NCBI GenBank assembly: GCA_000165345.1 | Contig: CM000434.1 | Span: 832,001-896,000 of the forward strand | Length of the DNA: 64,000 bases | Direction of reading: 5' to 3' | Part shown: positions 4,504 to 47,136 of the stretch, one piece after another | How the letters are laid out: every line of letters starts with the position of its first letter | Numbering within the stretch: position 1 is the first letter of the stretch | Position numbers and translations under genes: made by a program | Notes under the pieces: model-generated | Told to the model about the DNA's origin: nothing | The model's input: only the letters and a program-made list of their open reading frames with translations | Database searches by the model: none

Positions 4504-4851
4504 GCTCAGAAAAGTTGAACTAGAAGATATATAAGTTAGTATTTTCTTACCATAGTATGGCTTTCCTTTATTATTTTAACTGCTAGTTTATAAATCTAAT
4601 ATAATTTTACATCCTAGTTATATATGTATATGATTATTTCAATCGATAAGAATTTGAAGATACAGGAGGAGAGAAACAATGAAGAAGAAAAAGGTGATCG
4701 TTTTCTAGATAATTATTTAGTTGCTATTAGCCGAGTAGAATTTTGCATTGATAGTATTGATATATAAATAATTCAATAGATCTATATACCCAATTAAGGG
4801 AACACAAGACTCCATCGAATAAATTAACTACTCTCTTCATCAATCTTTCTT

Positions 4852-6120
4852 TTATACTGTCCTGGTAGCTTTTTCATATAAAACATCAACGACATTTGAA
4901 AGATTGTCGAATGTAGAGATAAGTTCAGGAATCTTTAAATTAGAATTCTGATTCTCATCATAGATAGTAAGAACTTCAGTTCTTTGATCAATATTTCCCT
5001 GAATCAACTTGTTTAAAATCATTTCAATAACCTTGGAATAAACTCTTTCGGAAGAAAGATTGAGGAATAAAGCAAGTTGAGAGATTTCAATGTGTGAATA
5101 AGATTCCAAAATTCTTAAAATATTCTGTTCCATCAAACTTTCATACAAGTTATTAATATGTCTGTGAATGACCATATCACTGCTTAACTCGGTTTCATAA
5201 TTCTTTAAAACATCCTCGAACATACTAAGAGATCTATTTTCGCAGCAAGATGCAACCATTCTCAAGGCTTCAATCTCTCTCATCTGGAACTTAACTTTAT
5301 TTTTACCAGAAAGTAGAGAAGCTAAATTATTGGTTTGTTGGGACATGATCTTTGATAACAACATATACTTTAATGATTGCAAGGCTCTTTCATCATTTGC
5401 AATATTAAATGCCTCGAAAGCTTCATAAAAGTACGAGAATGATGTCTTAAAATCTTCTTCATCAGCAAGTATAATGCCAGATTGTAGATCTATATCAGCC
5501 TGTAAGAGAGGAGGACAGTGAATGGAGTTTGCATTAGTTCTAGCTGCTGTCAAAGCTGCCTTAGACTTGGGTAAGTTACGAATTCTATACTCAAGTTTAC
5601 TTTCTATCAAATAAGCCTCCACTAATAGAATCTTATCGTCAACCTTTTTAACTTCTTTAATCAACTTTTCAATATAGTCTAAACCTTTAACAAATTGACT
5701 AGAGTTCAAATAAACCATTGCTAAACGAGCAGTAATTCTATGTCTCAAGAATGTACGCTTCTCTTCTAAGCACCATTCAATACACTCCAAACAAAGTTGT
5801 TCTTGTAGTTTTTCGGTATCTGGAATTTTTGACATCATATCCATTAGATTTCGAATAATCTTTGCAACTCTAGCTTTTGGTAGTCCACCAATTATTGGTC
5901 TAATAGTTTTAATAAGCTCTTTCAATTCATTTGCCATGCCTTGTTTCATATATATTTCTCCTAATGTATAGATTGCCTGCTCTTGAATTTTGGTTCCATC
6001 TTCTATTTCATCCAAGTTGTCTTTTTTAATCAATTCGATTAATATTGGAATTGATAATTTGAAGTCTGTCTCCATCAGAGACTTTGCCTTCTCAAAATCA
6101 TCCTTAATACTTATTTCCAT
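4852..6120 (-). CDS. RPN6: 26S proteasome lid subunit Rpn6 / PSMD11 (PCI domain)
   Basis: 422-aa ORF. The block LLVEAYLIESKLEYRIRNLPKSKAALTAARTNANSIHCPPLLQADIDLQSGIILADEEDFKTSFSYFYEAFEAF matches the highly conserved Rpn6 core as I recall it. The C-terminal part is PCI-like. Confidence 0.9.
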   Translation of the reverse strand: MEISIKDDFEKAKSLMETDFKLSIPILIELIKKDNLDEIEDGTKIQEQAIYTLGEIYMKQGMANELKELIKTIRPIIGGLPKARVAKIIRNLMDMMSKIPDTEKLQEQLCLECIEWCLEEKRTFLRHRITARLAMVYLNSSQFVKGLDYIEKLIKEVKKVDDKILLVEAYLIESKLEYRIRNLPKSKAALTAARTNANSIHCPPLLQADIDLQSGIILADEEDFKTSFSYFYEAFEAFNIANDERALQSLKYMLLSKIMSQQTNNLASLLSGKNKVKFQMREIEALRMVASCCENRSLSMFEDVLKNYETELSSDMVIHRHINNLYESLMEQNILRILESYSHIEISQLALFLNLSSERVYSKVIEMILNKLIQGNIDQRTEVLTIYDENQNSNLKIPELISTFDNLSNVVDVLYEKATRTV

Positions 6121-6582: not shown

Positions 6583-7588
6583 ATGAAATTCCAAAGTGAG
6601 AAAAATGAGGAAAATAAAGAAAGCATAAATAAGTCATCTTCAGCATTGATAAACTCATTAAGAAACCAAATTAATAAAGTATCAGCCTTGAATAAATTTC
6701 GCTTCATAAATAGTAATAAAAAGCCACTTGAAAATGAAGTCCAAATAAGTGATATTGCAGATAAAATTCGCAATAAGATCTCAATAAATAAGTTAAACAA
6801 GAGTCCAGGGCTTGAGCATACAAACAATAAGTATTCTGAAGAAATTGGAGGCGCTTATTCACCATTTAGAAAGAGAAATAAAAATAATGAAAAATATTCC
6901 TTGCAAAATAAAATGTCAAATTTTGAACAAACCAGATCAGAACTTGAGAATCTCTTACTTTATAATATCAACAAGCTGCGTCATGAGAGAATTAAGCTGA
7001 AAAACTGCCAAATGAATAAAAATAATAGTCATGATGAGAATGAAATTCTATTTCCAAATATTTATACACCTCTATCTTCAATGAAGTTTATGAATATCCA
7101 AGAATTATTTTTGTTTCTTTCATTGTTTTATCATAATTACCAAAGAGAGTGGATCTTACCATTATTAAATAACTTGAAAAATCTCGAAATAATCTTTTTC
7201 ACCCCAGAAAGTACTTCATCTTCATACTCTTCAACAATAATTACAGGTAGATACACTAAAATTTTAAATGAGGAATATTTGTTTTCAAGCAATGCACCAA
7301 TTTCAAAACTGATTTTAAATTCCGCAAAGTAAGTTACATTTATTAATTCCACTTTATAGCTTAATGCTTACTTAAAATTTCCTGAATAAATATTAATTTA
7401 TCTTTTATTTAAGGTGGCAAAAGGTTTCAAAAATTATAGAATCAGAAAATATTCAAGATTTCTCAACTGCTGTGTTTATATTTATTAACCCAAATATAAT
7501 TCAAACAAGTGAATGTGTATTTATCTCATCAGGTCTTTTCTTCATTTGCAACTTTGCACACCTCTTAACTTGTTTTGTTAGCAAGTAA
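6583..7588 (+). CDS. Hypothetical protein, 2 exons (306 aa)
   Basis: Exon 1 is 6583-7328. The intron is 7329-7413 (GTAAGT...TTTAAG). Exon 2 is 7414-7588. The splice restores the frame (746+175=921 nt) and opens a 58-codon stop-free extension ending in TAA at 7586-7588. No recognisable domain. Confidence 0.55.
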
Positions 7589-7702
7589 AACACTAGAAAT
7601 TGTCGAACTTGGTCTTTTACCAACATTTAATATTATTTGTCTACTTCAACTTTTATTTACTCTTTTTTTAATTATTAATACTATTTCTATTTCAAAAATA
7701 TT

Positions 7703-7847
7703 TTGTCCACATGAAATTTATTAATTTTCACACATACCGGTACTAAATATTTCTGATGACGTGTATAATTTTTTTTAATAAGTTTGCATGTGGAAATTGT
7801 CATACCGGTATATGCAATTACTATTATGTGTGGAAAAATTGCATGTA
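7703..7847. promoter_or_regulatory. Composite motif module (instance 1)
   Basis: TTGTCCACATG 7703-7713; ATACCGGTAC 7734-7743; GACGTGT 7758-7764; GCATGTGGAA 7786-7795; CATACCGGTATATGCA 7801-7816; TTGCATGTA 7839-7847. The module lies 115 bp after the previous stop codon and about 520 bp before the WD40 gene ATG. Confidence 0.45.
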
Positions 7848-8253
7848 AGAAGTAGATGTTTAGAAGTGGTTGCATTGATGAATTTTAAATATTAAAAATA
7901 TAATTTCGAGAGTTAATTAAAAAAAAATGCATATATAATAATAATAATTGTGGATGTAAATTTAATAAATAATGTTTCTTATTTATTATTGAATTGGCTA
8001 TAATCCAGAAAATAATCTACAATAAGTGAAATTGAGAAGAAAGTAACCTATGCTTAAAAAATACAAGTAAAAAAGTAAATAATTTGAATCAAGGGTAATA
8101 ACTAAAAATCAACAAATAATCATTTTTATCTACCCTTATATATTGCAAGAGATTCATTAATATTGATCGACTCATAATATTTAATATTAGCAAATCGGAA
8201 TTTTTTTTTATTCCATAATTCTAAAATGGTAATTAATTGCCTTTTTTAGACTG

Positions 8254-8261
8254 GGCGGGAA
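8254..8261. promoter_or_regulatory. E2F-type site GGCGGGAA
   Basis: Exact GGCGGGAA, 106 bp upstream of the ATG at 8367. Confidence 0.4.
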
Positions 8262-8366
8262 GTCGAAATATTATTTAAAGTTTAAGCTTGACATTAAGAA
8301 AAAAAAATTTGGATTTGGTGTTATTTAGGAAAAAGTTGTGAGAATTTGTTTGTTTAAGTACTAAAG

Positions 8367-9725
8367 ATGGATATGGAAATAGATTCAAATATTTCAGATG
8401 AAGAATATACTGGAATGGATGAAGATCCAGTATTGATAGTATCTGGAGATGAGCTTGATAGGTAAGTTAAAAGAAAATAACATTAGAACTTGATTAATAT
8501 TAAAATCGCACTAAATAAAACTTTTAGGGATGATGAAGATGAGGAAATGCCACTCTTTGATGTTCCTGATGAATCATCAGCTACAATCTTATCAATTGAT
8601 TCTCCAATTTGCTGTATAGATATAGATCCTACAAGAAGAGGTCGAATATTATTCGGAGGATGTGACGATAAAGCATATGTATCAAATTTACCAGAAAATC
8701 CTGTCTATTCTAGTGAGCAGGGAACTGAGAGACTTAACTTAGGTTTTGAAAAAGTATTTCAAGGTCATTCAGATACAGTTTCATGCGTTTCTTATTCAAC
8801 GGATGGAAAATATTTTGCAACAGGAGGTTGTGATGGAACTATAAGAGTTTATGGTAATGAAGTTTCAAATGAAGGCCAACTTATTTCAATTCTGGAGGGT
8901 CCATCTGATGAGCTTGAATTCATAAGGTGGCATCCGCGTGGACCATGTATATTTGGAGGTGGAGTAGATGGAACAGGATGGCTATGGATGGCTCCTGATG
9001 GAAGAGTATTATCTGTACTTTCTGGTCATGGAGATAGTATTACATGCGGAGATTTTAGTAATGAAGGTAAAATAGTTTGCACAGGATCTCTAGATGGAAG
9101 CGTAATTATTTGGAATCCAAAAAATGGAGAAAGTTTGCACAAAATTACAAGAAATAGTTTTGTTAATAACGCAGGTGACTCATCTTATTTAGAGGAATTG
9201 GGTATAGTTTCAATGAGAAGTCACAAAAAGAATCCGTTACTTGCTGTTGGGTTTACTAATGGTTTATTTTCTCTAATTCAACCTGATACTGGCAAAGTTC
9301 TAAGCTTAAACAACAGACATCATGATTCTCTAGATTGCATTGAATTCATTAATCATTTAGAAGATCCTCTGTTAGCTACTGGAGATATGTCTGGAGAATT
9401 AATTGTTTGGAATTATGAATACAATAGAGAAAATTTTGTAATGAAGAATCAGGAATTGGAACATTCAAATGGAGTCTTGCCTGGTATTACTAGTATATGC
9501 TGGGGTGGAGATAGAAACAATACCTTAATTGCAACGGGGTGTTTAGATGGAACTATTAGATTATGGGACTTTAGAACAGGAGAAAATGTTAAAATTCTTA
9601 AAGGGCATAAAAGTGGAATATTATCCATGAAAATCGTAGAATTCGGTTTTCAAGGAACCAACGTATTAAGGATGGTATCTACAGGAGATGATGGAAGATG
9701 CTTACTTTGGGATGTAAGAATGTAA
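8367..9725 (+). CDS. WD40-repeat protein, AAMP/Sqt1-like, 2 exons
   Basis: Exon 1 is 8367-8461 (MDMEIDSNISDEEYTGMDEDPVLIVSGDELD). The intron is 8462-8527 (GTAAGT...TTTTAG). Exon 2 is 8528-9725. An acidic N-terminus is followed by about 7 WD repeats (GHSDTVSCVSYSTDGKYFATGGCDGTIRVY, GHGDSITCGDFSNEGKIVCTGSLDGSVIIWN, GHKSGILSM...). The family assignment to AAMP/Sqt1 is from memory. Confidence 0.6.
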
Positions 9726-9790
9726 TAAGGAAAAAAAACAAGATTCAAATCATAATAATTTTAAAAGTGACTAAATTCTGTCTATAATCA

Positions 9791-16037: not shown

Positions 16038-16293
16038 CATGGTATCGATTAATGAATTAAATTGATTGCAAACGGAAAAAATTAAGATGGATGGAAGCCA
16101 AATAATAAACAAAAGCAAACTTGAAAATTTATTAATTTGATTTTGATCTTCTCTTTTCAATATTCCCTATCATACAAATCACTCATAATCACTAATAATT
16201 ATATTAGCTCTTGTATTTTTTTTTTTGTAATATATTCAAATTTATTCAAAATTCTGAAACTCCATCCTTAAACTTATCTATTCTGATTTGTAG

Positions 16294-16391
16294 TTTGTCC
16301 ACATGAACTTGCAAATGTTTGCAAGTTGCATGCAATTACCTGCATTACACGTAATTGGTGAAATTCAATACCGGTATATAGGCGGGGCCCC
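16294..16391. promoter_or_regulatory. Composite motif module (instance 2)
   Basis: TTTGTCCACATG 16294-16305; TGCATGCA 16327-16334; ACACGTAA 16347-16354; ATACCGGTAT 16368-16377; GGCGGGGCCCC 16381-16391. The module lies about 255-350 bp upstream of the ATG at 16645. Confidence 0.5.
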
Positions 16392-16644
16392 ACAAAATAA
16401 TGGATTTACATGTATTAGCATACGTAAGAAATAATATTAACGAAAAAATGGGATATTTCGTCGGTGATTAGAGTGGAATACGTATATAAGATATGGACGT
16501 AAGGTAGGAGAAATATTATGTTGAAGATATTTTAAGTTTTAATGTTATAGAATTATTAATCAGTGATATTTGGTGTGATTTTGTTTTTGAGATTTCAATT
16601 AAGGAAAAAAGTAAATAATCAAAAGATTGATAAGAGATAAAGAT

Positions 16645-18372
16645 ATGAAGATTTTTACGGAAAAACTGGCTGTATTTATTGCCGTCTTGGTAATATTAAT
16701 TTCGAATATCTCATGCAATAAAGAAATTGAAATCCCTGAAGATGTTACAAAATTGAATGATGACAACTTTGAAGAATTCATTGATGGAAATAATCTTGTA
16801 CTAGTATTATTTTATGATTCTTCCACTACTTCAAAAAATATAATCCATGGTCTTGGATATGTTTACTCAAACGTAGTAATGTCAAAAGGAACAGGAAAAA
16901 TTGCTGTTTTAAATTGTGAGGAATCTTCAATTCAAAAGAAATTTGAAATTCACCATCCTCCAAAGCTGCTATTCTTTTTTGGAAGTATAAACAAATTTGA
17001 GGCATATCCAAGCCATCTAACTGGTTTGGAAAGAGAATCAATGATTTCGATTATCCTTGCAAAAGAAAATGCTCTCTTCATTGAACATGATGCCAGAGAT
17101 AGTGAATCATTGGAAAAGGCTATGATAGAGTTTGACTTGGAAACAAAAGTTCGCTCCTCCAATCTCCCTGTTATTGTTTATTATGGTAAACCAGGTACTA
17201 AGAGAACTGATGTCGTAAAAAACACACTCGAAAAGTTAAGACTAACTGGAGTTTCCGTTAAAGCATTCATTATTTATGTTAAATACAAGGCCGATATTGG
17301 ATTACATATTTATAGATTGCCTGATTCAGATAAGCATGACTCTATGAATATTCAGCCAAAAGAACTTTATATTGCAAAGAAAAAGATCTTGGGATTATTA
17401 GAGTGGAACAAAGATATTTTATCTGTCTTTATTGAAGCTTGCATAAGGCCATATGTCTCTTTTAAAGGTAATGAAATTATGTATGTACACGAAAGTTCTA
17501 ACTCTTTAATAGCTTTCCTTAAGGGAAGCAACACTCTAGATCGGTATGGATCTAGCAATATTCAGTACTTAGATCATGATTCAATGGAATCTTTGAGAGC
17601 TTTTGCAAAGGCTAACTTTTTCCCAGAAGATCCAGATAAGGATTTAATGATTGGGCTTGTATTACCAGGATTAGAACAGGAGGTAGAAAACTTTACTGGT
17701 TTTCGAAGGGATGCTCATGTGAATGATGGAACCTTCCTCTTGAAACTTCGACAATCCAAATTTGAGCTTGGGAACTCCGGGAAGTCTGATAAATTCCTGC
17801 TTACTGAAGGGGAAATTAAAAAACATGGATTTGAATATTTACTTTCTCAGGCTAAGAATAGAAAATTACCCATTTTTTATAAAAGTAAGAGAATAATGAA
17901 ACAGCAAAAGGTCTCTGCTAGTGTTGAACAATATTTCACAACCCCATATCATTTTCTTGAGCTAAATCCTTCTTCCATCAGAGAGCTAATCCAAGACCCA
18001 AATAATGCACTGATAGTCCTTTACTATTCTGAAATGTGCTCAGGGTGCATGGATCTCCTTCCAATTTGGAACTCGATCTCTTCAAAAATTGCTTCAAAAT
18101 TTGGAAAAGATTCCAAATTCCGTGTTTTTGTCTCCGCTTTCGATGTAGAGTTTAATGACAATCCAATTGATATGCAAATTGAGAAAATTCCTTTAGTATA
18201 CTATTTCCCATTTGGAGAAGATAAAGTTTCCAAGATGTTCTTATATGATGAGGAAATAACCTCTAAAACTGTTACTACATTTATAACTGATAGAGTTCTA
18301 GAGGTTTCTGAAGATAATGATCAAGCTGAGCAAAATATTAGTCCGGATTCTCAAATCAGGGATGAGCTTTAA
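16645..18372 (+). CDS. ER-resident thioredoxin-fold protein (PDI-like), C-terminal RDEL
   Basis: The track start at 16627 is a TTG, and the first ATG is at 16645 (MKIFTEKLAVFIAVLVILISNISC, signal-like). The N-terminal Trx-like segment VTKLNDDNFEEFIDGNNLVLVLFYD has no CXXC. The C-terminal Trx segment ALIVLYYSEMCSGCMDLLPIWN carries CSGC. The protein ends QIRDEL, a KDEL-type ER retrieval signal. Confidence 0.75.
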   Translation: MKIFTEKLAVFIAVLVILISNISCNKEIEIPEDVTKLNDDNFEEFIDGNNLVLVLFYDSSTTSKNIIHGLGYVYSNVVMSKGTGKIAVLNCEESSIQKKFEIHHPPKLLFFFGSINKFEAYPSHLTGLERESMISIILAKENALFIEHDARDSESLEKAMIEFDLETKVRSSNLPVIVYYGKPGTKRTDVVKNTLEKLRLTGVSVKAFIIYVKYKADIGLHIYRLPDSDKHDSMNIQPKELYIAKKKILGLLEWNKDILSVFIEACIRPYVSFKGNEIMYVHESSNSLIAFLKGSNTLDRYGSSNIQYLDHDSMESLRAFAKANFFPEDPDKDLMIGLVLPGLEQEVENFTGFRRDAHVNDGTFLLKLRQSKFELGNSGKSDKFLLTEGEIKKHGFEYLLSQAKNRKLPIFYKSKRIMKQQKVSASVEQYFTTPYHFLELNPSSIRELIQDPNNALIVLYYSEMCSGCMDLLPIWNSISSKIASKFGKDSKFRVFVSAFDVEFNDNPIDMQIEKIPLVYYFPFGEDKVSKMFLYDEEITSKTVTTFITDRVLEVSEDNDQAEQNISPDSQIRDEL

Positions 18373-18526
18373 ACTTCTAATTCATTCTTTCTTTTTTTGA
18401 AGATTTCTTTTAATTTAATAACTTTCTATCTAATTACAAACAAAATCATAAATTTAATGTTAAAATTTATATGCCTAAAACTAGTGGCTCATGTATGTAT
18501 ATTATATTTATATATTTTTTATCCCA

Positions 18527-18590
18527 CCCCGGTACCTGGTTAAGTGCAGCACGTGCATGCGCATGTTTGCGCGGGGATTGGGCGGGAAAA
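18527..18590. promoter_or_regulatory. Composite motif patch between two convergent 3' ends
   Basis: CCCCGGTACC 18527-18536; CACGTGCATGCGCATG 18550-18565; TTGGGCGGGAAAA 18578-18590. It lies 155 bp after the stop of the + gene (18372) and 11 bp after the stop of the - gene (18601). Confidence 0.4.
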
Positions 18591-18600
18591 TTTGCTCTTC

Positions 18601-21600
18601 TTAAGTTGTAAACTTGAAAAAGGTTAATATTGCAAGTGGTGTAAAAATATAAAGACAAAACCCTGACAATTTTTCTGTTATATCAAATCCACAAATCTTA
18701 AGCAAAGGTGGTGTTGAGTTAATTACAAGTAGAACCTTCTCTATCACAATATAAATCCCTGCTCCTGGTGGAGTTCTATGTAAAATATTTTGCAACCAAG
18801 AATGAGTTCTTACTGATGTTCTGTTTATTTGATAAAGTAGCCTTATTACATATGAAGAAAAAATAAACATAACTATTCCCATTGTTAGAAAAATTGTCTC
18901 ACAATTTGAATAAGTATTGATCATATTATTTTCTGAAGATGATGGAATTGTTCCTTGATAAGATAAATATGAAGTTGCATATTGAGGAATTGTTAACATA
19001 AATGAAAGAGCTGAAGTTTTAATGTTTGATATACTTGCTAGATTTGAATATGTTAATGTTGAATGTGAAATTACTGGATTATTATCATTGTTATTCATAC
19101 CAGAACGTATTGATCTCATCAAATTTATATTATTTATAAAATTGTTGGTACCTTCTCCTGGAATATTAGTATAATAATGATCATTTAAATCTATCATTGA
19201 TGATATATCATTATATTTATTCATATTATAATTATCCTCATTATTTGAGTTTAAAATATAATCAATATTTGAAATTGAATCCATAAATTGATTTTTATTT
19301 GTTGAAAAAGATCCTGTCTTAAAAAAGTTATTCATAAAATGATCCCCTATTGATCTTGAATTTAACTCATTTAACAAATTTGTACTAATTCCTCCACCTA
19401 TAATATTTGGAGATGTAGTTAATATTCTTGAAATATCTTTATCAAAAGAACCTCTTACAATATTTGTTGAACCAGAAGCTGATAATCCATTCAAATTTTG
19501 ATTTGAACTTGGATTCTTACTCAACATTGTAGAAGATGAAAGATCTGAAACTCGATTATTATATATTCTATTCTTTTTGTTATATATTGCAACAAGCATA
19601 ATTTTCCCAATACAAAAGAAAATTAAAGTATTTATAGATACAGAAGCATTTAAGAAAGATGTCCAAAGCTTTGTATTCTTATAAAGGATATGTTGTATTG
19701 CACTTCTCCAATAACTAACAATTTGAATAAATTCTTGAACATTTGAATATTTAAATTGGGTTGGAATATGTTGAACTAATACAATACAAAGTCTTTTTCT
19801 TTGTTTCACAAAGAATAATAAAATAATCAAACCTTTCAAAATCTCAAAAATTAAGTTGGAAATCCAATATGTAAATATACATTCAATAATATAAACTGTT
19901 ATTGGAGATTTATTATAAAGGAAATATAAAGTTGAATCCCTTATTAAATATGAATTACTTTTAAATAATGTTATTGATATATTTGATGACATTGCCACAA
20001 TACAACTTATTATCTTGCAAGTAATAACAACATTAAAGTATTCATATGGAGTATTATAACTCACTTCATCCACTAATCGATATAATGGTTTATGAATCTG
20101 ATTATTAGTTACAACATTTCCAATATTTGTTCTAATATTATCACAACTTAAATTATCTTCTGCACTTGAAATAATGTTCCTAATTTTTCTTAATCTAATA
20201 GATCTTTTAACTTGGTTATTACTTTTTATGAAATTATTAAAGTTATCATTAATACTTGGAATTTTTTTCTGCCGTTTAGAATTAATATAAATACTTGTTT
20301 TACTTGATATGTTAGTATCACTTTGATATATTTGTTGTGTATTTTTTATTCTATTACAATAATTAGATAAAACTGACTTAAAACGTTTGTTTGCTGTGTT
20401 ACTTCGGGTTATTCTAATAGCTGGACCACTCAAAGTTGAACAAAATTTATCATTTACTAACCCAAAAGATGAAGATTTTGAAGAATTAATGTCAAAAGCA
20501 ATATTAATATCATTTGATTCAATTTTTGAATTATAATTTTGAATCCAAGGTGTTCTCAAATATTTATCTCCTGAGCTAGTATCATTAGAAATGGTTGAAG
20601 TAATTGATAATAAATCAGGCAAACAAATATATTCTCCTCCTGTTGAAGATTTTTTTACTTTAACTGAACTTTTCTTCATTACTTTCACTTTATTTACTTT
20701 AGAATGATTTGGATTTAATTTTATCCTATTGATATATTTATCATCATCATTTTTTTTTGTTATAGATTCTAAATCTGAACCAAGTGAATTTGTATCTTCA
20801 TTTGATTCACTCGAACTCAAATTCTCATCATCCGCAAAGTTATTATTTTCAAAATATTTTGAAGATGATGATGAATATGAGGTAAAACGAGAATAAGATC
20901 TCGATCCAAAAGTTGTCACATTTGAAGAAGAAACTCCCAATAAATTAAACCTTGCAGTATTTGGTGAAGAAAAATTAGATGAAGAATCTGGTTGAGAAGT
21001 TACTGAACAACCATTTACTTCATTTGAATAAGAATGACTGGCCTTTGTGTTAATGTAGTAATTACTAGTTGAAAAACTTGATCCTGATTGACTATTATTT
21101 AATTCTGATATAAAACTCCCGCCAAATCTATGATGCACTTGTGCATGTAACTCCGGTATTAAATCCATATGAGACTTATTTCTAGAACTTAATTTTTGAC
21201 TTGATAATTTTTGTGGAATCAACATATTTGGTGAAATTTCAATTTGATTGTCTAAGATTGGAACTTCACTATTAATTTTATTATTAGAATTCTTGTCAAT
21301 ATCACTTTTGTCGCAATCAAAGTCATAGTCATACTCATTATTATTATTATGACTGAAATAGTTGTTTTTAATTAAAGTACTTGAATTCATTGCACAGTTT
21401 AAAAGGTTTGAATATATATTTCTGATATTTTTTCTGTTTTCTACAGATTTCTTATAATAGTAATAATTATATAAGTAATATTCTTTAGAAAATCCACAAA
21501 AGTATTTGTTACAATAGTTGGAAACAAATTCATGTGTGTAATATATTCTAACACTTGAACAGAGTGTGGCTGTGATAATGACTCCAATTAAGAACCATAT

Positions 21601-24600
21601 ATAGTCATATTCACTAATTAGGAAAAGTATCGTGAATAAGTAAATTAATGAAATAATTTGTATGAAGAAGAATAAGTATTTGATAATAGACTGAAGATTT
21701 GTATTTTTTTGAGAGTTTTTTTGCTTAAAATAATTCATTGGAGCATTCAACAAATTACTCTTTGTAGTTTTAATAGTATTCATAGACTTTTTATCCTTAA
21801 TATTTTCTTTTAAAGAGTTATCCTTATAAATATACCAAGGTGATGTGAAAATTAAAGACAATGCCAACAATACTGAATCAATGACTTTTCCTGATGCAGA
21901 TACTGGGAAAATTTCTGCAAAATCTCTTAATCTAAATACAGAATATGGCAATGTATTTAAAAAAGCTTTTCTCGTATATTTGAGAATATTTTTTGTTAAT
22001 AACTGAATTGATGATTTTGACTTAAAATTTGAATTTTGGCTTTCATTAGTTACACCCGATATTCCTCTTTTTTTTTCTTTTTTATTTTGTCTGATTAACC
22101 CACTTTTTGTTTTTTTATTTGAATTTATTTTCTTTTTAATCTTTTCCTTACTCCAATCGTTTATCATGTTTTTGATATAAAAGACTTTGAGATATGATAT
22201 AATTGCCCAAAGTAATATGTAAATTATAGATGTCAATAGAATTGCAGAAGAAACTCGAATAGCTGATGGAATTATATGATTATGAGGACTTGTATTTAAT
22301 AAAGTAATGAATTTTGCTTTTTTAGCCAATAGTTCTTCAAACGTAGTATATGAACTTGATTTATCACAGATTGGATGTTTATTCATCATTCCATAAAGTT
22401 TACTTCTACTTATTAAGGGACCTAAATCAGTAACATTAGCTTTAGCTGGTATTTCTGGTATGTAACCAAGATGAATTTTTTGATAATCACTATTTAGACT
22501 TGGAATATAACATTCAGTTTTTTCACCAATACATTGAGAATCTATCAGCAATGTACTGGATGGATCAAATTCATGTTCATGATCTTGACTAAAAATCATG
22601 GGTACCCATAAGACCTCTTTTATTTGCATAATATTACAAATGTTTGGTAGCTCTATTAAGCAGTTACCCAAATATGTATTTATTCCCATTTTTTTATCCA
22701 TCTTTTTATATAATGCATCAATTCCAGTTTCATGTGTAGGTGTTGTTTCCATATTATCTTGACCAAAATAGTCAAAGTCGTCCAATATTCCTTGTATCTT
22801 CTCATTTAAATTGTTGCTTTGAGTATTTTCAATAGCATCATTAATATTTAGATTCTCTAATCTGTTTTTAAGAGTATGAAGTCCTTGAATCTTTGAAAAA
22901 TCCACGTTCTTTCCTAAGAAGAGTTCAGCTTCATTATTTCTTGGATAATTACAGGTGGAGTTCTGTAAAATTTTGATAATATGTTCAAAACTACTGGAAC
23001 GTACAAATTTGGTCATTTCTGGAGACAATAATTGTTTTACTAGATTGATAGCTTCTCCTAAAGAATCAGTTTTTCGATATTCTGTTTTAGTCTTTGATAA
23101 ATTAACTAATTCATCATTTTTGTCAGTATAATTTTGGAAAAGTTTAGTCTTTTGAGAAAAAATGGTGTCAAAGTTACTAAAAATAGATTCATATTCTCCG
23201 CTAGTATCGTGTTGAGAAATATGATCATCTTCTTCAAAATAACCTCTTCTCATTTCACTTCTCACAAAATTCATTTGTTCTTCAAGTTCATTCTGCTCGT
23301 CCAGCTCATTCTGTTTTTCCACTTCCTTATTGTTTTCAGTAAAATCAAATTGATACTGCAAAAAGAAATCGCGACTAAATTCTGGATTAGAGTAAATACT
23401 ACCTTCAACGGAACTACTGCTCTTTACTTTCTCATTAAAAGTAGTATTTTCTAGCTTTACTGAAACATTTACATCTCTTCCATTTGAATCAGAAGCTGTC
23501 AAACTTTCATTAATATACTGGAAGATTTTATTGTGTTCAATACTATTAATTTTAGCCAAATTATCTAGCTCAGTCTCATCTGAATCAGTCTCTGAATTAG
23601 AATCAATTTCACGAATTTCTCCTTCAATACCATTCGAAAGAATAATAATTCTAACCAAAAGTGTAACGGGAATAGCCATCAAATCATCTAAATTTGGAAA
23701 TTCTGGAGGTAATGAACCCAATAATCTGGAAGCAACTTGGATACTCACTTCTGATGAGTAATCAAGACTTGAAAGTACTTCTGATAGTGTCTGGACTCTT
23801 CCTAAAAGAATATTTCGAATAATATCATCCTTTCCTAAAATTGTTGCAGTAATAAGAGCATGCTGTAATGCATGAATACACCAAAAGCTTTGTAACATTG
23901 CCTCCCTTAATATTGACTGTAATACCACTTTTGACGTATAATTTTTATTTAATAAAAGTAGTAATGATAAGATCGAAATTGAATTATCATACTCTGAAGT
24001 ACCTATAATAGGTATCGATCGTGGTGTAGGAATTGAGTACCTTTTTAAAGGCTTACAAAAACATCTCACGACAAATGAACTGACGTGGAAGTCTATGGCT
24101 GGTGATGAGAGATATTCAACAATTTTATGTTCACCTGTAATATCGTTTCCTGAGCTAACCGCAAGTTCGTACCAAAGAGTTGTATTGGTTTTTGGATTTT
24201 GAAACATAAGCATTTCCTCGAGAATTTGGAACTTAGGCAACTTATTGTTATTGTTTCCAGAAAATTTGAACTCATTAATTTGATCAAACTCTTCAAACAT
24301 TTTAAAAGATTTTTTACTGCTAATAGTTGGTTTATATAAAAGTGAATTTTCTTTATTAAGTTCTCTGCTCTCTTTTAACATCAATTCCTCCTGATAATTG
24401 ATTTTGTAAATAAGGTGGCCAATAGGAAGGTTCCCATATATATCAGGTTCATGAAGTTCGCAAAGTTCAAAATCCAATACCCCAGTATTAGTCTGAAACT
24501 TGTAGAAACTAACCAAAATCCTAATCAGATCTTCATCTCCAAGATGAGCCATCCACCAAAGCAAGTTCCGGCCTTCATTATCCCTAACAATGCATATATC

Positions 24601-25593
24601 CTTGTTATATGCCTTGATTTCTGGGAGTAATAGAGAAAAGATGACTTTTTTATCAAATCCTCTTTTAATTGCAGTAATAATACGAAGAATTTTATCCTTT
24701 GCATTGGCCAACTTTCTGTTAATTTCGGAAAGAGTTGAATTTAAAGGTAACTTTTCATTACTGGAAATATACTCGTTATCAATATTATTCCTCACAATAT
24801 ACTTGGAAAAGGAGGAATGTTCAATTAATTTATTTAATAACTTTTTGTTTCCTGACTCAATAATAAACGAAATCGCATCTTTTCCTTCAAGGGTTAAATC
24901 AGTCATAGATGCTCCGTAGTCCAAAAGCAACTCCAAGAATTCCTCGGTATTTGTTGACATTCCGTCTTTTAATAAGAAATAAAATGGGGTTAGCCCATTT
25001 CTGTCTGGAATATTTGGGTTTGATCCACATTTTAACAGAAAATGAGTCATCCTCAAATTCTTTGAGATTACACTGTAAAATAATGGAGACAAATCCCTAT
25101 TATCTGAGTAATCAATATTGGCTCCGTTAAGTAATAATAATGCCACTAATGGTAAGTTGCTTCTTTGAACAGCATTAATCAATGGACTGATTCCATTCGC
25201 ACCAACTATGTTTACATCTGCTCCATGTTCTATCAAATATAACGAGATAGTATAGGAAATATATCCATTTTGTCTAGTTGAAATGAGTAAGGCAGTTTCT
25301 CCTGTTGAATTAGAAATTGAATTAATATTATTAACGCATAACCTATCAAGCATAGCAGTGATTGCCTCAAGATCCTGTAGCCTAATACTTTCATGGAATT
25401 CATCCACTAAATCAAGACATTCTTCTGTGTAAGCAATATCTTTTTGGCATTCACAGTTATTTTTCTGGATTACATTTACCAATGAATCTGAAATACTGTT
25501 TAATGGGCAACCAATAGGAAATATTTGTTTGGTTCCTATGCAAAACAATATCTTAAACGTTAAAAGAAAAATTGAACATAGATAAATCTTCAT
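18601..25593 (-). CDS. Giant (2330 aa) signal-peptide, ankyrin-repeat, multi-pass membrane protein
   Basis: Single uninterrupted ORF. The N-terminus MKIYLCSIFLLTFKILFCIG is signal-like. It has at least 4 canonical ANK repeats (TGETALLISTRQNG...LIEHGADVN, NGISPLINAVQRSNLPLVALLLLNGANID, DLSPLFYSVISKNLRMTHFLLKCGSNPN, NGLTPFYFLLKDG). There are at least 8 strongly hydrophobic 20-aa segments in the C-terminal 1250 aa, separated by Asn/Ser-rich low-complexity tracts. Confidence 0.8.
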   Translation of the reverse strand: MKIYLCSIFLLTFKILFCIGTKQIFPIGCPLNSISDSLVNVIQKNNCECQKDIAYTEECLDLVDEFHESIRLQDLEAITAMLDRLCVNNINSISNSTGETALLISTRQNGYISYTISLYLIEHGADVNIVGANGISPLINAVQRSNLPLVALLLLNGANIDYSDNRDLSPLFYSVISKNLRMTHFLLKCGSNPNIPDRNGLTPFYFLLKDGMSTNTEEFLELLLDYGASMTDLTLEGKDAISFIIESGNKKLLNKLIEHSSFSKYIVRNNIDNEYISSNEKLPLNSTLSEINRKLANAKDKILRIITAIKRGFDKKVIFSLLLPEIKAYNKDICIVRDNEGRNLLWWMAHLGDEDLIRILVSFYKFQTNTGVLDFELCELHEPDIYGNLPIGHLIYKINYQEELMLKESRELNKENSLLYKPTISSKKSFKMFEEFDQINEFKFSGNNNNKLPKFQILEEMLMFQNPKTNTTLWYELAVSSGNDITGEHKIVEYLSSPAIDFHVSSFVVRCFCKPLKRYSIPTPRSIPIIGTSEYDNSISILSLLLLLNKNYTSKVVLQSILREAMLQSFWCIHALQHALITATILGKDDIIRNILLGRVQTLSEVLSSLDYSSEVSIQVASRLLGSLPPEFPNLDDLMAIPVTLLVRIIILSNGIEGEIREIDSNSETDSDETELDNLAKINSIEHNKIFQYINESLTASDSNGRDVNVSVKLENTTFNEKVKSSSSVEGSIYSNPEFSRDFFLQYQFDFTENNKEVEKQNELDEQNELEEQMNFVRSEMRRGYFEEDDHISQHDTSGEYESIFSNFDTIFSQKTKLFQNYTDKNDELVNLSKTKTEYRKTDSLGEAINLVKQLLSPEMTKFVRSSSFEHIIKILQNSTCNYPRNNEAELFLGKNVDFSKIQGLHTLKNRLENLNINDAIENTQSNNLNEKIQGILDDFDYFGQDNMETTPTHETGIDALYKKMDKKMGINTYLGNCLIELPNICNIMQIKEVLWVPMIFSQDHEHEFDPSSTLLIDSQCIGEKTECYIPSLNSDYQKIHLGYIPEIPAKANVTDLGPLISRSKLYGMMNKHPICDKSSSYTTFEELLAKKAKFITLLNTSPHNHIIPSAIRVSSAILLTSIIYILLWAIISYLKVFYIKNMINDWSKEKIKKKINSNKKTKSGLIRQNKKEKKRGISGVTNESQNSNFKSKSSIQLLTKNILKYTRKAFLNTLPYSVFRLRDFAEIFPVSASGKVIDSVLLALSLIFTSPWYIYKDNSLKENIKDKKSMNTIKTTKSNLLNAPMNYFKQKNSQKNTNLQSIIKYLFFFIQIISLIYLFTILFLISEYDYIWFLIGVIITATLCSSVRIYYTHEFVSNYCNKYFCGFSKEYYLYNYYYYKKSVENRKNIRNIYSNLLNCAMNSSTLIKNNYFSHNNNNEYDYDFDCDKSDIDKNSNNKINSEVPILDNQIEISPNMLIPQKLSSQKLSSRNKSHMDLIPELHAQVHHRFGGSFISELNNSQSGSSFSTSNYYINTKASHSYSNEVNGCSVTSQPDSSSNFSSPNTARFNLLGVSSSNVTTFGSRSYSRFTSYSSSSSKYFENNNFADDENLSSSESNEDTNSLGSDLESITKKNDDDKYINRIKLNPNHSKVNKVKVMKKSSVKVKKSSTGGEYICLPDLLSITSTISNDTSSGDKYLRTPWIQNYNSKIESNDINIAFDINSSKSSSFGLVNDKFCSTLSGPAIRITRSNTANKRFKSVLSNYCNRIKNTQQIYQSDTNISSKTSIYINSKRQKKIPSINDNFNNFIKSNNQVKRSIRLRKIRNIISSAEDNLSCDNIRTNIGNVVTNNQIHKPLYRLVDEVSYNTPYEYFNVVITCKIISCIVAMSSNISITLFKSNSYLIRDSTLYFLYNKSPITVYIIECIFTYWISNLIFEILKGLIILLFFVKQRKRLCIVLVQHIPTQFKYSNVQEFIQIVSYWRSAIQHILYKNTKLWTSFLNASVSINTLIFFCIGKIMLVAIYNKKNRIYNNRVSDLSSSTMLSKNPSSNQNLNGLSASGSTNIVRGSFDKDISRILTTSPNIIGGGISTNLLNELNSRSIGDHFMNNFFKTGSFSTNKNQFMDSISNIDYILNSNNEDNYNMNKYNDISSMIDLNDHYYTNIPGEGTNNFINNINLMRSIRSGMNNNDNNPVISHSTLTYSNLASISNIKTSALSFMLTIPQYATSYLSYQGTIPSSSENNMINTYSNCETIFLTMGIVMFIFSSYVIRLLYQINRTSVRTHSWLQNILHRTPPGAGIYIVIEKVLLVINSTPPLLKICGFDITEKLSGFCLYIFTPLAILTFFKFTT

Positions 25594-26153
25594 CTTTATA
25601 ATTCACCTTGATAACTTCAAGTTCATTAAATTTTCATATTATTTGCAGTTTATCTTAATCCAATTTAAATAGTAAATTATCTCATTAATCAGACTTGGAC
25701 TCTGCCTATGAGTTTATTACTTTATTTGATTTCTGAATAACTCTATCGGTGTGTTCAGTTTAATGTTATTGAATTTATTTCAATAGTGTCATTTCAAAGT
25801 TCTGGCACCTAGCTCCTTATAATAGCAAGCTGTATTAATCTTTTTGAAAATGTCTTATTAATTACTGCTGAAATACTAATAACCCGTTTTATTCAACTAA
25901 ATTACCTTATTAAAATTAAATTTCTTTCCTATTTCATTTATTAACATCGCCTTCACCATTAAACTCCCCCCATGTCGGTACCATAAAATAGCAATTTTTC
26001 CGCTCATTAATTGTAAAATTAATTTGCCCACATTAATTTGACAAAAAATTTCAAATCTTTAAATTAATTTACCATTTTTTGTTTTTAATTTAATTTCTTT
26101 AATAATTTTTTTTTTAACCTTTTTAACCCAAAACAATACAATTGCAATATAAA

Positions 26154-26286
26154 TTGTCCACATTGAAAAAAAAAATTTATTGCATGCATGCAATTTACAC
26201 GTAAGATTAAAAAAAGTGTGCATGTGGATGAATAACAATTGAACGAAGCTAATACCGGTATGTGAATTTTACATATTTACGTGGGA
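26154..26286. promoter_or_regulatory. Composite motif module (instance 4)
   Basis: TTGTCCACATT 26154-26164; TTGCATGCATGCAATTTACACGTAAG 26180-26205; GTGCATGTGGAT 26218-26229; AATACCGGTATG 26251-26262; TTACGTGGGA 26277-26286. The module lies upstream of the giant gene (ATG 25593) and 53 bp past the stop of the 26339 gene. Confidence 0.45.
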
Positions 26287-43716: not shown

Positions 43717-43896
43717 GCATAGGAAAAACTACCCCACAGAATAATCATTCCAACTCTTCATGAATTACTTTGAAATAAAAAAAAAGATTTAAAAGGGAAC
43801 TAAGAAAAATTACAAAAATACCTAAGCAATAAAATTTGATTTCTTCCTCCTTCCCCCCATAAATCTAATATTAAAAATTTTTTAAAAAAAATATAT

Positions 43897-43948
43897 AAAA
43901 AGGTACCCGGTACCTTTTTTTTGAAAGAAATTATATATGCCGGTATAT
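43897..43948. promoter_or_regulatory. Near-perfect palindrome AAAAAGGTACC-C-GGTACCTTTTT plus ATGCCGGTATAT
   Basis: The 11-nt inverted arms at 43897-43907 and 43909-43919 flank a single C. The CCGGTAT-type word is at 43937-43948. The patch lies 180 bp after the giant gene stop and about 215-260 bp before the TRAPPC5 ATG. Confidence 0.4.
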
Positions 43949-44160
43949 TATTTAACGGTGTGAAGATTAGCAAGAAAACTTTTTTTTTATTTAGGATCAT
44001 GGAAACTTGAAAGATTTGAGTTTTAATAGAGAAACAGTCAAAGCAGCTTTTTTTTTTTCTTCCTTTTATAACTCTAACTTAAGACACCAATAAATGGTGG
44101 ATCTGGAAATAAATATATATTAATATATTTCGATAATTCACCCGAAGTAAAAATTTGAAA

Positions 44161-45111
44161 ATGCTGAAAATTGATAGGCAAAATAAAAAAGGGGCCTCTC
44201 AACCATTAGAAAGAAATATTATGAAATGTTCTCCTGAAGTAAGTTTTGAAAATGAGTAGGAAAGTTGGAGAAATGTATTTATAAATGTTATATTATATGC
44301 ATTACCAATTCCTTTATTTATTTGATTTCAACGTTATTATTATTCTATTTATATAAAATTCAAATTTTAAATATTTAAATATTAGATTAATTTAAGTTCC
44401 TTTGCATTTTTATTTTCTGAAATGGTTCAATATTCCCTATCTTGCCTGAAACCAGGAATTAGGCTTGAAGATAAGTAAGTTGATAAAATATTGACTTTAT
44501 TACCTTTGATGGATTGCAAATTGTTAATTATTAACTCTTTTAAAATTAAAGACTTCATGAAATGGGGATTTCTGTTGGATTTAAAATAGTTGAGCTAATT
44601 TCAATTAGAGATAAAGCTCATCAAAAAAGAGAAACTAGAATACTTCAAATTCTTTCTTTTATATCTCAAAAGTGTTGGAAGTATTTATTTGGACATACTG
44701 GGGATTTACTTAAAGGGCAGGAATCTGATGATGAATGTAAGTTGAAAAATTATGATTTAAAGCTCAGAAAACCAAGAATATTTAAATTTCTTTTTCTCAG
44801 ATATGATCAATGATAAAAATCTTCTTTTAAACAAATTCATCTCTGTACCAAGGGTAGGTAGTGTTTGAATATTATTACAATAATAATAATTTTAACAAAA
44901 TGATTAATTAACCAATATTTAGGATCTTGAACATATTAATTGTGGTGCATATGCTGCAGGAATTGTATCAGGTATTCTAGATAGTTCAGAATTTCCTGCC
45001 AATGTGACAGCTCATACCACTGAAGATACCCCAAATAACTATAGTACAACCATTTTGATTAAATTCGACAAATCTGTACTTCTTAGAGATAAATCTATTC
45101 AATCATTTTAG
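44161..45111 (+). CDS. TRAPPC5: TRAPP complex subunit 5 (Trs31/TRAPPC5), 5 exons (197 aa); only one exon visible in the ORF track
   Basis: Exons are 44161-44238, 44386-44474, 44552-44736, 44801-44853 and 44923-45111 (78+89+185+53+189=594 nt). The donors are GTAAGT three times and GTAGGT once, and all acceptors are AG. The product MLKIDRQNKKGASQPLERNIMKCSPEINLSSFAFLFSEMVQY...RETRILQILSFISQKCWKYLFGHTGDLL...YMINDKNLLLNKFISVPR...INCGAYAAGIVSGILDSSEFPANVTAH...TTILIKFDKSVLLRDK is collinear with human TRAPPC5 as recalled (EVSLSAFALLFSELVQ, RETKVLGALLFVKGAVWKALFGKEADKL, YISVPKE, NCASFTAGIVEAVLTHSGFPAKVTAH, TTLMIKFEEAVIARD). Confidence 0.85.
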
Positions 45112-45225
45112 TGAATAACTTTTTACTCATTTTCACTCTTATTTACAGAATTAGCTTGAATAATTATTTATATCAATATTAGATTATATACTTGATTACC
45201 AATAATTGTTGAATAATAAAAACCA

Positions 45226-47136
45226 TTATAAATTACAGAATCTATATATAGTCACAGAATATTTAGGCACATTCAACATATAGGATACATTATTTTCTGC
45301 AGAATCTTGTATTGAATACTTGATTTGCCCTTTTTTAGGGCTTGTATAGCTACCATCCCATCCTCCGTATTCTTCAGATTGAGAATTAAACTCTTGCTTC
45401 AATTCCCTACCAAAAGATTGGATAATGTTCTGATCTATCTTAACTTGGTAATTATTTTCAAGCCATTCAGTTTTATCCATATTTACAACACATAAAAATG
45501 CTTTGTCCTTGCTTTTTCTAATAAAAACAACGACAAAGTTTGACGTGTTTACATTAAAATGAGAGAAGTTATTGTAATTTGAGGCAAATACTTCTTTTTC
45601 TTTAGTTTTAAGAAGATTGATATCTTTAACCAATTTTCTCATTTGTTGTGTGACTTGGTCATTATTCTTAATTAATCCCCAATCATAGTTATAAGCTTTA
45701 TCTTTAGCTGACCACCATTTCCCTTGTAGATTCTCTGTACCCATAAAAACCATTGGTATTCCAAAAGATATACAAGATAATGAATACAATAACCTACAGT
45801 ATGCTCTTGCATCCCAATTTTGTCTTCCACCAAATTGATCTACTATATATCTCCCAATGCGATCATCACCAGAGGGATTACCACCATTACATCTATTCCC
45901 AGCTTGATCATGATTCCCTAACATTGTTAGAATGCATTGACTAGTGGAATCAAACCCACTGTGACCTTGTATTAGAGATTTAGAATATCCAGAATTCCAT
46001 TCTTGCTGAGTTTTTTGGTTCCTAAACTGAGAAATAATATCATAATATGATGAGTGAATCCAACATGAATCAAATCCACATTCTTTTAAATAGTTTGGGT
46101 TTTCAGGTACAACTTCTGCAATTAGAAACCTACCAGGAAATTCTTCCTTCAATCTAAATGTGATATTCTTCAATAACCAGTTTGGCATATTATGAACACT
46201 ATCAAAACGTATTCCATCAACTCCATACTCACCCAAAAGTACTCTACATGCTTCATATAACATATCTTGTACTTCTTTTTTATGGAAATTGAATTTGGCT
46301 CCCCAGCCAGTATCACCACCTCCCTCAAAGTATATTCCTCCTTGGTGATTATATCCATCAAAATTCCATAGTGAGTTAAGCTTGGATGCTCCGTGATGAA
46401 GAACTAAATCTACAACAATAAATAAATCTTTTTCATGGACTTTCTGGACTAAATATATGAAGTCATCAACCGACCCTAAGTGACTATTAATACTTAATAG
46501 TAGCCTTGGGTTATAGCCCCATTCTCCACAATACTCTACAATAGGCATAAGCTCTAAACAATTAAAGTTTAAATCCTTAATGTTGTCGAGCCCATAGTCA
46601 GCAATTTGCCTAAAAAAGCTCGGGTTCTTGCTAAATTTTGCTTCAGATTGAAGTGGAAAGTACTCTGAAAATCTTCGAATGTAACTTTCAACGTGTAACT
46701 CATAAATAATTAAATGATTAAACTCATGTTTTTTTAAATATTCTCGAATTGACTTATTAAAGTTTCCAAGAGTATCAGTAATGTAAGATGAATCAGTATC
46801 ATAATCAGTATATCTAGCATAAGGATCCCTCCTTGTTATTTTTTCTCCATTTGATGTTTCCAACAGAAAGTGATACCTTTCATTCATATTCACATTTTTC
46901 ATTATCACTCTTTTTATATTTATTTCATCGTCATTTTCCATTAAGAAGCTTTCATTTGTACCACTATTTACGAGCCAAACATTCTTACAATGCACTACCC
47001 ATAACCTAAAAATACATATACCAAATTCTTTATAAAACATTGCTCCCATCTTTTTTTCCTGTTTCTTAATGTAATTTGGCAACTCTTCATATTTAATTTG
47101 ACTCCATTCAACCTTTTCATTTCTCAATTCACTCAT
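45226..47136 (-). CDS. GH13 alpha-glucan enzyme, branching-enzyme-like (N-terminal E-set/CBM48-like plus alpha-amylase catalytic domain)
   Basis: 636-aa ORF.
- The N-terminal segment is FRLWVVHCKNVWLV...YHFLLETSNGEKITRRDPYARY.
- The GH13 conserved regions are IIYELHVESY, IVVDLVLHHGA (region I), GVDGIRFDSVHNM (region II, catalytic Asp), FLIAEVV (region III, Glu) and MLGNHDQAGN (region IV).
- Whether it is a branching enzyme or another GH13 activity cannot be decided by eye. Confidence 0.75.
   Translation of the reverse strand: MSELRNEKVEWSQIKYEELPNYIKKQEKKMGAMFYKEFGICIFRLWVVHCKNVWLVNSGTNESFLMENDDEINIKRVIMKNVNMNERYHFLLETSNGEKITRRDPYARYTDYDTDSSYITDTLGNFNKSIREYLKKHEFNHLIIYELHVESYIRRFSEYFPLQSEAKFSKNPSFFRQIADYGLDNIKDLNFNCLELMPIVEYCGEWGYNPRLLLSINSHLGSVDDFIYLVQKVHEKDLFIVVDLVLHHGASKLNSLWNFDGYNHQGGIYFEGGGDTGWGAKFNFHKKEVQDMLYEACRVLLGEYGVDGIRFDSVHNMPNWLLKNITFRLKEEFPGRFLIAEVVPENPNYLKECGFDSCWIHSSYYDIISQFRNQKTQQEWNSGYSKSLIQGHSGFDSTSQCILTMLGNHDQAGNRCNGGNPSGDDRIGRYIVDQFGGRQNWDARAYCRLLYSLSCISFGIPMVFMGTENLQGKWWSAKDKAYNYDWGLIKNNDQVTQQMRKLVKDINLLKTKEKEVFASNYNNFSHFNVNTSNFVVVFIRKSKDKAFLCVVNMDKTEWLENNYQVKIDQNIIQSFGRELKQEFNSQSEEYGGWDGSYTSPKKGQIKYSIQDSAENNVSYMLNVPKYSVTIYRFCNL

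Follow-up and report, generated by a model that had tools for sequence, protein, structure and literature searches.

A promoter-type motif patch between the convergent 3' ends of two genes on Cryptosporidium parvum chromosome 6

The window, the whole stretch of 64,000 nucleotides that was analysed, belongs to chromosome 6 of Cryptosporidium parvum, and the locus studied here lies at about 0.85 Mb in complete C. parvum assemblies. Since the genome of this organism is nearly free of introns, long open reading frames serve as a gene map. The left neighbour of the locus is a gene for a PDI-like protein of the thioredoxin family that ends in RDEL (16645-18372, plus strand). Its ORF is identical to C. 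parvum EAK89981/QOY41250 and shares 96% identity with the C. hominis thioredoxin family protein. The right neighbour (18601-25593, minus strand), which we call the giant gene, encodes a 2330-aa ankyrin-repeat, multi-TM protein identical to C. parvum EAK89983/QOY41251. A preliminary description had placed a patch of promoter-type words between these two genes, and all of its coordinates and words agreed with the sequence. The TAA stop codon of the PDI-like gene occupies 18370-18372 and the stop codon of the giant gene 18601-18603 on the minus strand, so that the 3' ends of both genes face a gap of 228 bp (18373-18600). We located the orthologous loci of ten other Cryptosporidium species or samples via the PDI-like protein, and the convergent arrangement of the two genes was kept in all ten.

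The middle of the gap is taken up by a conserved AT-rich block (18432-18496). For C. hominis, C. meleagridis and the chipmunk genotype, its identity to C. parvum was 1.00, 0.95 and 0.79, respectively, compared with 0.97, 0.84 and 0.66 at the 4-fold sites of the PDI-like gene, which we used as a neutral yardstick. The block contains the inverted repeat ATAAATTT (18448-18455) / AAATTTAT (18463-18470), and this symmetric ATAAATTT-N7-AAATTTAT arrangement would offer AUAAAU to both convergent mRNAs. The block is probably a 3'-end processing region common to the two mRNAs, possibly a bidirectional poly(A) region. A structured RNA in the AT-rich block, with the GC-rich patch next to it as promoter, was considered and rejected: RNAalifold gave -6.4 and -4.2 kcal/mol with a positive covariation term, and no compensatory pair was present. 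Closer to the PDI-like gene, 7 nt past its stop codon, the string AATTCAT(T) at 18379-18386 is invariant in six of six aligned species despite the poor conservation of this 3' flank.

Next to the giant gene lies the GC-rich patch, a putative cis-regulatory element of 68 bases (18523-18590) that comprises the entire motif cluster and was delimited by its GC content and its retention in orthologous gaps. In the CpBGF assembly it corresponds to about 847,903-847,970 of CP141123.1. It is separated by 10 nt from the giant-gene stop codon and by 150 nt from that of the PDI-like gene. The patch thus sits at the tail of a protein-coding sense gene, a trait of the promoters of antisense lncRNAs. Because it begins 10 nt past the giant-gene stop codon, it must be transcribed in the 3'UTR of that gene. 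The GC content of C. parvum is about 30%, and the mean of the 64-kb window is 30.6% (sd 7.3%). Against this background bases 18523-18586 reach 65.6% GC (z = 4.8), the highest value among 63,937 segments of 64 nt. The runners-up at this scale are two tRNA genes (57.8% and 54.7% GC), and the best value elsewhere is 54.7%. The claim that this is the densest GC patch of the window therefore holds at the 64-nt scale; at 30 nt the patch ties with 46297-46326, and at 100 nt it ranks fourth.

By its sequence, the patch is a cluster of mostly palindromic words of the kind found in double-stranded DNA elements. The leftmost word is CCCCGGTACC (18527-18536). The near-palindrome CCCGGTACCTGG (18528-18539) includes the phylogenetically footprinted box CG[GA]TACC (GGTAYCG) at 18530-18536. 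The next word, CACGTGCATGCGCATG (18550-18565), overlaps three elements that run into each other: the perfect palindrome GCACGTGC (18549-18556) with CACGTG at 18550-18555, the AP2_1 site CGCATGCAC on the minus strand (18553-18561), which matches BGCATGCAH with 0 mismatches and has its core TGCATGC at 18554-18560, and the perfect 10-nt palindrome CATGCGCATG (18556-18565), which overlaps the AP2_1 site. The word GCGCGGGG (18569-18576) matches G.GGGG and can be read as a weak G-box or as E2F-like. In two assemblies of C. parvum, one from Logan (DRR729207) and GCA_048859185.1, the G-run of this word (18573-18576) lacks 1 nt. The cluster ends with the E2F-like site TTGGGCGGGAAAA on the plus strand (18578-18590). 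Within it, TTGGGCGGGAAA (18578-18589) has one mismatch to E2F-like motif 4, TTTGGCGGGAAV, and an intact GGCGGG core; the window holds no exact copy of TTTGGCGGGAAV and five matches with one mismatch, including that of the patch. The strict E2F/DP1 core [C/G]GCGC[G/C] was not found in 18373-18600, where the nearest strings are TGCGCG and TGCGCA.

The definitions of the AP2_1 and E2F-like motifs were those published for C. parvum upstream regions (PMC3734150). The AP2_1 motif family and its AP2 binders have been described (PMC3734150; PMC4117751), and several ApiAP2 domains of C. parvum bind TGCATGCA in vitro (PMC4117751). The ApiAP2 proteins that bind TGCATGCA include cgd2_3490 and cgd1_3520, and sites of this type may be specific to certain life-cycle stages. 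The proposal that the words of the patch are promoter elements gained support from the exact AP2_1 site, from the E2F-like site with a single mismatch, and from the recurrence of GGTAYCG and CACGTG in real promoters of the window.

The same words were counted over the whole window. CG[GA]TACC occurs nine times where 1.26 copies are expected, with intergenic copies at 13249, 16041, 18530, 25976 and 43908, and the longer AGGTACCG occurs three times where 0.12 are expected. The copy at 16041 corresponds to ATGGTATCG, which is invariant in the PDI-side promoter of five species, and the copy at 25976 lies upstream of the giant gene. At 43902-43914 a tandem GGTACCCGGTACC lies 190 bp past the stop codon of a gene of 2270 aa, in a 1.5-kb gap that has no long ORF. 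All three copies of CACGTG in the window are intergenic. Intergenic DNA of the window holds GCATGC, SGCGCS, GGCGGG and CACGTG at 4 to 20 times the density of genic DNA, and such words are present in every divergent gap and in most tandem gaps. None of them was found in the four other short convergent gaps (4504-4851, 9726-9790, 31712-32266 and 59019-59141).

A set of four words (TGCATG, an ACGT core, CCGGTA and GGCGGG) falls within 70 bp at only two places in the 64 kb, the patch and the PDI promoter (16327-16381); a looser copy within 120 bp is present at 36412-36491. In 300 composition-preserving shuffles the set was never reached within 70 bp and once within 200 bp, a significance that is inflated because the four words were picked post hoc from the data. 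A trio of TACCGGTA, (C/T)ACGTG and TGCATG(CA) occurs in nine gaps that contain a 5' end, including 26181-26279 upstream of the giant gene, and together with CGGTACC a related trio covers 25976-26279 upstream of this gene. As judged from these words, both flanking promoters and the 3' junction shared by the two genes use the same vocabulary. In the real promoters of the window the words vary in order and orientation, with no fixed grammar that would point to the strand of a putative transcript from the patch.

The palindrome TACCGGTA is an observation in its own right. It occurs seven times in 19 kb of intergenic DNA (3586, 7735, 7803, 16369, 26253, 50669 and 55961) where 0.11 copies are expected, and TGCATGCA occurs six times against the same expectation of 0.11. 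Half-sites of TACCGGTA are present at 36464, 47311, 60804 and 18529. The palindrome is nearly always found 50-150 bp or less from TGCATG(CA) and (C/T)ACGTG. The 25-motif list of Oberstaller et al. (2013; PMC3734150) contains neither TACCGGTA nor GGTAYCG, though both are as enriched in intergenic DNA as TGCATGCA, and a literature search found no paper tying TACCGGTA to Cryptosporidium. Together with TGCATGCA, the words TACCGGTA, GGTAYCG and CACGTG may form an undescribed composite promoter module in Cryptosporidium, and the enrichment of TACCGGTA and GGTAYCG may be of wider use than the patch itself. Three long gaps of 1.2-1.5 kb (43717-45225, 50521-51815 and 7333-8546) have no ORF of at least 110 aa and contain clusters of promoter-type words; they may hold unannotated genes that are small, spliced or non-coding.

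Conservation in related species, on which the preliminary description had made its reading depend, was observed: the cluster is retained in orthologous loci at the same position. It was found at the same place in the orthologous 3'-3' gaps of eight species or samples of the intestinal clade. In C. hominis, C. meleagridis and the chipmunk genotype a GC-rich, recognisably homologous patch adjoins the giant-gene stop codon. C. ubiquitum and SRR18693150 retain CGGTACC and TGCATGC, and the right half of the patch is gone in both. C. canis has CACGTG, TGCATGC and GCGCGCGCC. SRR31860986 has CGGTGCC, TTTCCCGCGCC and CACATGTG, with GCGCGGGAAAC 14 nt from the stop codon. The gaps of C. ryanae, C. bovis and C. 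serpentis are short or AT-rich and lack the patch. The distance of the patch to the giant-gene stop codon is kept in several species.

In the six-species alignment, CG[GA]TACC (CG.TACC) and TGCATGC are the sole invariant blocks of the patch. CACGTG reads CATGTG in C. meleagridis and is intact in C. canis, and CATGCGCATG is conserved in C. parvum and C. hominis only. The GCGCGGGG word is present in C. parvum, C. hominis (as CCGCGGGG) and C. meleagridis and absent from C. ubiquitum. C. meleagridis retains the E2F word (GGGCGGGAAAG); the chipmunk genotype has GGGGCGGAAAAA and SRR31860986 has GCGCGGGAAAC in its place. The word is disrupted in C. hominis (GGGCGAGAAAA) and missing from C. ubiquitum. 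When the strict E2F type is compared, the C. canis ortholog carries GCGCGCGCC, whereas the C. parvum gap is without [C/G]GCGC[G/C]. In C. ubiquitum the AP2_1 site has grown into a (GCAT)7-type microsatellite, ACGCATGCATGCATGCATGCATGCATGCATGCAG (5880-5935 of the C. ubiquitum sequence).

The rate of change was judged from identity to C. parvum. For C. hominis, C. meleagridis, the chipmunk genotype and C. ubiquitum, the patch gave 0.91, 0.79, 0.59 and 0.49, respectively, and the 4-fold sites gave 0.97, 0.84, 0.66 and 0.58. In C. canis and SRR31860986 the 4-fold identity is near saturation (0.34 and 0.31), and the word set is still present in both. Between C. parvum and C. hominis, 7 of 78 positions differ in the patch and its tail, whereas the remaining 150 positions of the gap show 2 differences (Fisher p = 0.008); the E2F word of C. 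hominis was lost through one of the seven. Taken as a whole, the patch changes at least as fast as neutral sites, and its two boxes are kept. Retention beyond the neutral expectation, a trait of cis-regulatory modules, thus applies to the two boxes and to the presence of the word set and not to the whole patch. The last 100 codons of the giant gene showed no extra synonymous constraint, as their 4-fold identity was not raised.

The patch is far less conserved than the adjacent PDI promoter. A promoter block of about 110 bp (16280-16400 in the window) is almost invariant from C. parvum to C. ubiquitum, far above synonymous sites, and reads GTCCACATGAA...TTGCATGCAATTAC.TGCATT.C.CGTAATTG...AATACCGG...GGCG.GGCCCCACAAAA. 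In the patch, the pattern of words that are kept or replaced and filler that drifts is typical of turnover in regulatory DNA, weaker than in the core promoter of an essential gene.

Several other readings of the patch were tried and rejected. Rfam gave no match in the gap at the gathering score when the whole window was searched; with E <= 10 on 18200-18800 only chance-level matches appeared (E of at least 1.4), none of them in the patch, and ARAGORN called no tRNA in the gap. A known RNA family or a tRNA was rejected on these grounds. Folding of the patch yields -25.9 kcal/mol for the minus and -30.3 kcal/mol for the plus strand, with unremarkable z-scores of -1.3 to -2.35. A conserved stem-loop gained no clear support, as pair counts in the alignments of four species did not beat those of shuffles on either strand: the observed pairing was reached in 36 of 500 shuffles for the plus strand and in 205 of 500 for the minus strand, a comparison of low power with only four sequences. 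The outer stem is broken without compensation in C. hominis, C. meleagridis and the chipmunk genotype, and its right arm is absent in C. ubiquitum, a loss that argues against an RNA structure. A plus-strand ORF of 46 aa (18471-18611), reported by some gene callers on Logan contigs, is not conserved: it is shortened to 23 aa in C. hominis, C. meleagridis has a frameshift, and the chipmunk genotype lacks the ATG. The plus strand has three G-runs (GGGG, GGG and GGG), one short of the four required for a G-quadruplex. Logan contigs were also discarded as a proxy for transcripts, since those matching the PDI-like protein are genomic and 33-42 kb long.

We consider it likely that the patch is a functional cluster of transcription factor sites. 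That such a cluster also acts as a non-coding promoter, transcript included, is a tentative proposal to which we give somewhat less than an even chance. What the sequences show directly are the words, their enrichment, their confinement to promoters in the remainder of the window and their persistence in related species; transcription factor binding, and the start and direction of a transcript at the patch, are what we infer here. The proposed element would be a compact cis-regulatory module composed of a GGTAYCG/CCGGTACC box, CACGTG, the AP2_1 word TGCATGC and the E2F-like GGCGGGAAA. It would act as an autonomous, probably bidirectional promoter. Non-coding transcription from it would proceed antisense on the plus strand into the giant gene, on the minus strand into the PDI-like gene, or in both directions, and the ApiAP2 and E2F/DP factors that regulate the sense genes would regulate this transcription as well. 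Because no gene starts at the patch and it sits in a tail-to-tail gap, inside the 3'UTR DNA of the giant gene, an autonomous non-coding promoter appears the most likely function. The conserved words are palindromic (GGTACC, GCACGTGC, GCATGC and CATGCGCATG), a feature that is easier to reconcile with DNA-binding proteins acting as dimers than with an RNA signal tied to one strand and that suggests bidirectional use.

The patch probably belongs, as its words and position suggest, to a class of elements described by Li et al. (2021; PMC7840661). In that study the antisense lncRNAs of C. parvum were biased to the 3' end of the sense gene, and in the 100 bp upstream of lncRNAs the two highest-ranking motifs were E2F and AP2_1. 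The patch shares with these promoters its location at a gene 3' end and its E2F/DP1- and ApiAP2_1-type motifs, and this fit favours an autonomous, possibly bidirectional non-coding promoter. It differs from them in having an E2F word of the GGCGGG type and in standing alone between 3' ends; of the 363 published antisense RNAs, 309 use a promoter that is shared head-to-head with a neighbouring gene. The locus also lacks a catalogued lncRNA: the tables of Li et al. (2021; PMC7840661) contained none with CPATCC_00292xx as sense or neighbour gene, on the assumption that GenBank CPATCC_002924 equals CryptoDB CPATCC_0029240, and local 20-mers had no match among 324 of the 396 lncRNA sequences of that study. 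[quoted passage not shown] The newer CpBGF annotation has 766 lncRNAs. In sporozoites, ATAC-seq peaks reportedly lack AP2 motifs, and 888 of 984 peaks lie upstream of genes (10.1101/2025.01.17.633476). These features of the peaks, the negative look-up in the tables and sequences of Li et al., the loss of words in C. hominis, C. ubiquitum and SRR18693150, the divergence at or above the neutral rate, the weaker conservation compared with the PDI promoter and the last 100 codons of the giant gene, free of extra constraint, count against the promoter reading. An antisense or non-coding transcript from the patch is plausible by analogy with the published class.

Ordinary upstream regions of C. parvum (PMC3734150) provide a second comparison. 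Like the PDI promoter at 16327-16381, the patch holds TGCATGC(A), an ACGT core, CCGGTA/GGTAYCG and GGCGGG within 55 bp. Unlike such regions, it has no downstream start codon on either side and is more compact and GC-richer than any real promoter of the window; moreover, the PDI promoter is almost invariant to C. ubiquitum, whereas in the patch just two short boxes are. In yeast, cryptic antisense promoters are found in the 3' nucleosome-depleted regions of genes. Giardia has a compact genome with inherently bidirectional promoters (cited in PMC7840661). By analogy only, transcription factor sites at 3' ends in a compact genome could yield antisense transcripts. Yeast also has roadblock terminators, at which DNA-bound factors of the Reb1/Rap1 type stop RNA polymerase II. 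The patch resembles these as a tight cluster of sites directly past a probable poly(A) region between close convergent genes and differs from them in that such sites are missing from the window's other convergent gaps; we know of no case of roadblock termination in Apicomplexa.

In the closest rival explanation, the patch is a 3' element that gives rise to no stable transcript itself. The factors that bind the two promoters would also bind the shared 3' junction, where they could serve as a roadblock or insulator, as a downstream enhancer or as a loop anchor for one or both genes. In the roadblock or insulator version, polymerase II leaving the PDI-like gene would be halted before it runs antisense into the giant gene, and the reverse. 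The evidence for a cluster of transcription factor sites applies equally to such an element, including the vocabulary common to both flanking promoters, and a roadblock, an insulator or a 3' enhancer looks identical to a promoter at the sequence level. The gap of merely 228 bp, the position of the patch just past the AT-rich block that probably holds both poly(A) signals, which is the point where a polymerase finishing the PDI-like gene would have to halt, and the lack of an lncRNA for the locus in the tables and sequences of PMC7840661 also speak for this explanation. However, nothing like the patch occurs in the window's four other short convergent gaps, which argues against a general need of tail-to-tail genes, and the orthologous gaps of C. 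bovis, C. ryanae and C. serpentis do without it as well. Roadblock termination, 3' enhancers and gene loops were not found described for Cryptosporidium in the literature surveyed. We regard the 3' element as unlikely. A more specific form, a shared 3' hub in which ApiAP2, E2F/DP and a further factor for GGTAYCG/TACCGGTA bind both promoters and the 3' junction and thereby loop the genes or halt polymerases, seems distinctly improbable; if true, it would be the first transcription factor roadblock terminator or gene-loop anchor described in an apicomplexan.

The patch could instead act at the RNA level, as a 3'UTR element of the giant-gene mRNA (minus strand) in which a stem-loop or GCAUG-type protein sites affect stability, localisation or translation. 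The patch lies within this mRNA, is foldable and keeps its distance to the stop codon in several species, but the fold z-scores, the minus-strand shuffles that equalled the pairing and the broken stem and lost arm in relatives point the other way, and the conserved palindromes also occur, in either orientation, in untranscribed or upstream promoter DNA. We hold an RNA element to be very unlikely. An unannotated small non-coding RNA gene is suggested by the fact that ncRNAs stand out by high GC in AT-rich genomes, and the GC content of the patch exceeds that of both tRNA genes; about 68 nt and the foldability are in range. For C. parvum, 43 'novel intergenic' ncRNAs of intermediate size have been reported, and 15 ncRNAs conserved solely in the five closest species (PMC9465071) also count in favour of such a gene. 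Against it stand the Rfam search of the patch, negative even at E <= 10, the lack of a tRNA call and the covariation, which was not significant on either strand with four sequences; furthermore, the patch resolves wholly into promoter words, and in C. ubiquitum half of it consists of a (GCAT)n repeat and AT-rich DNA. Such a gene is highly improbable. Finally, the patch may have no function: it could be a relic in decay, or GC-biased gene conversion could have produced it locally, with promoter-like words in it by chance. Its divergence at or above the neutral rate, the excess of C. parvum-C. hominis differences, the indel polymorphism within C. parvum and the loss of individual words in several lineages agree with this. 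On the other hand, an island of 60-65% GC would be expected to decay in a genome of 30% GC, yet GC richness and words persist where synonymous sites are saturated, two boxes are invariant in six species, and four promoter words within 55 bp were never reached in shuffles. To an absence of function we assign a low probability.

The importance of a free-standing promoter-type module at this locus would be modest, as the general phenomenon has already been published and the patch, by analogy, would be another, unusually clean copy of a known class of element. Antisense transcripts are found in about one tenth of Cryptosporidium genes. Because the patch stands free and is not confounded by the promoter of a neighbour, it would offer a clean case for asking whether E2F and AP2 sites suffice, in a genome as compact as this one, to initiate antisense transcription or to halt sense transcription. 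Since C. hominis has lost the E2F word and the remainder of the patch turns over fast, the patch is also a candidate regulatory difference between the two main human-infecting species.
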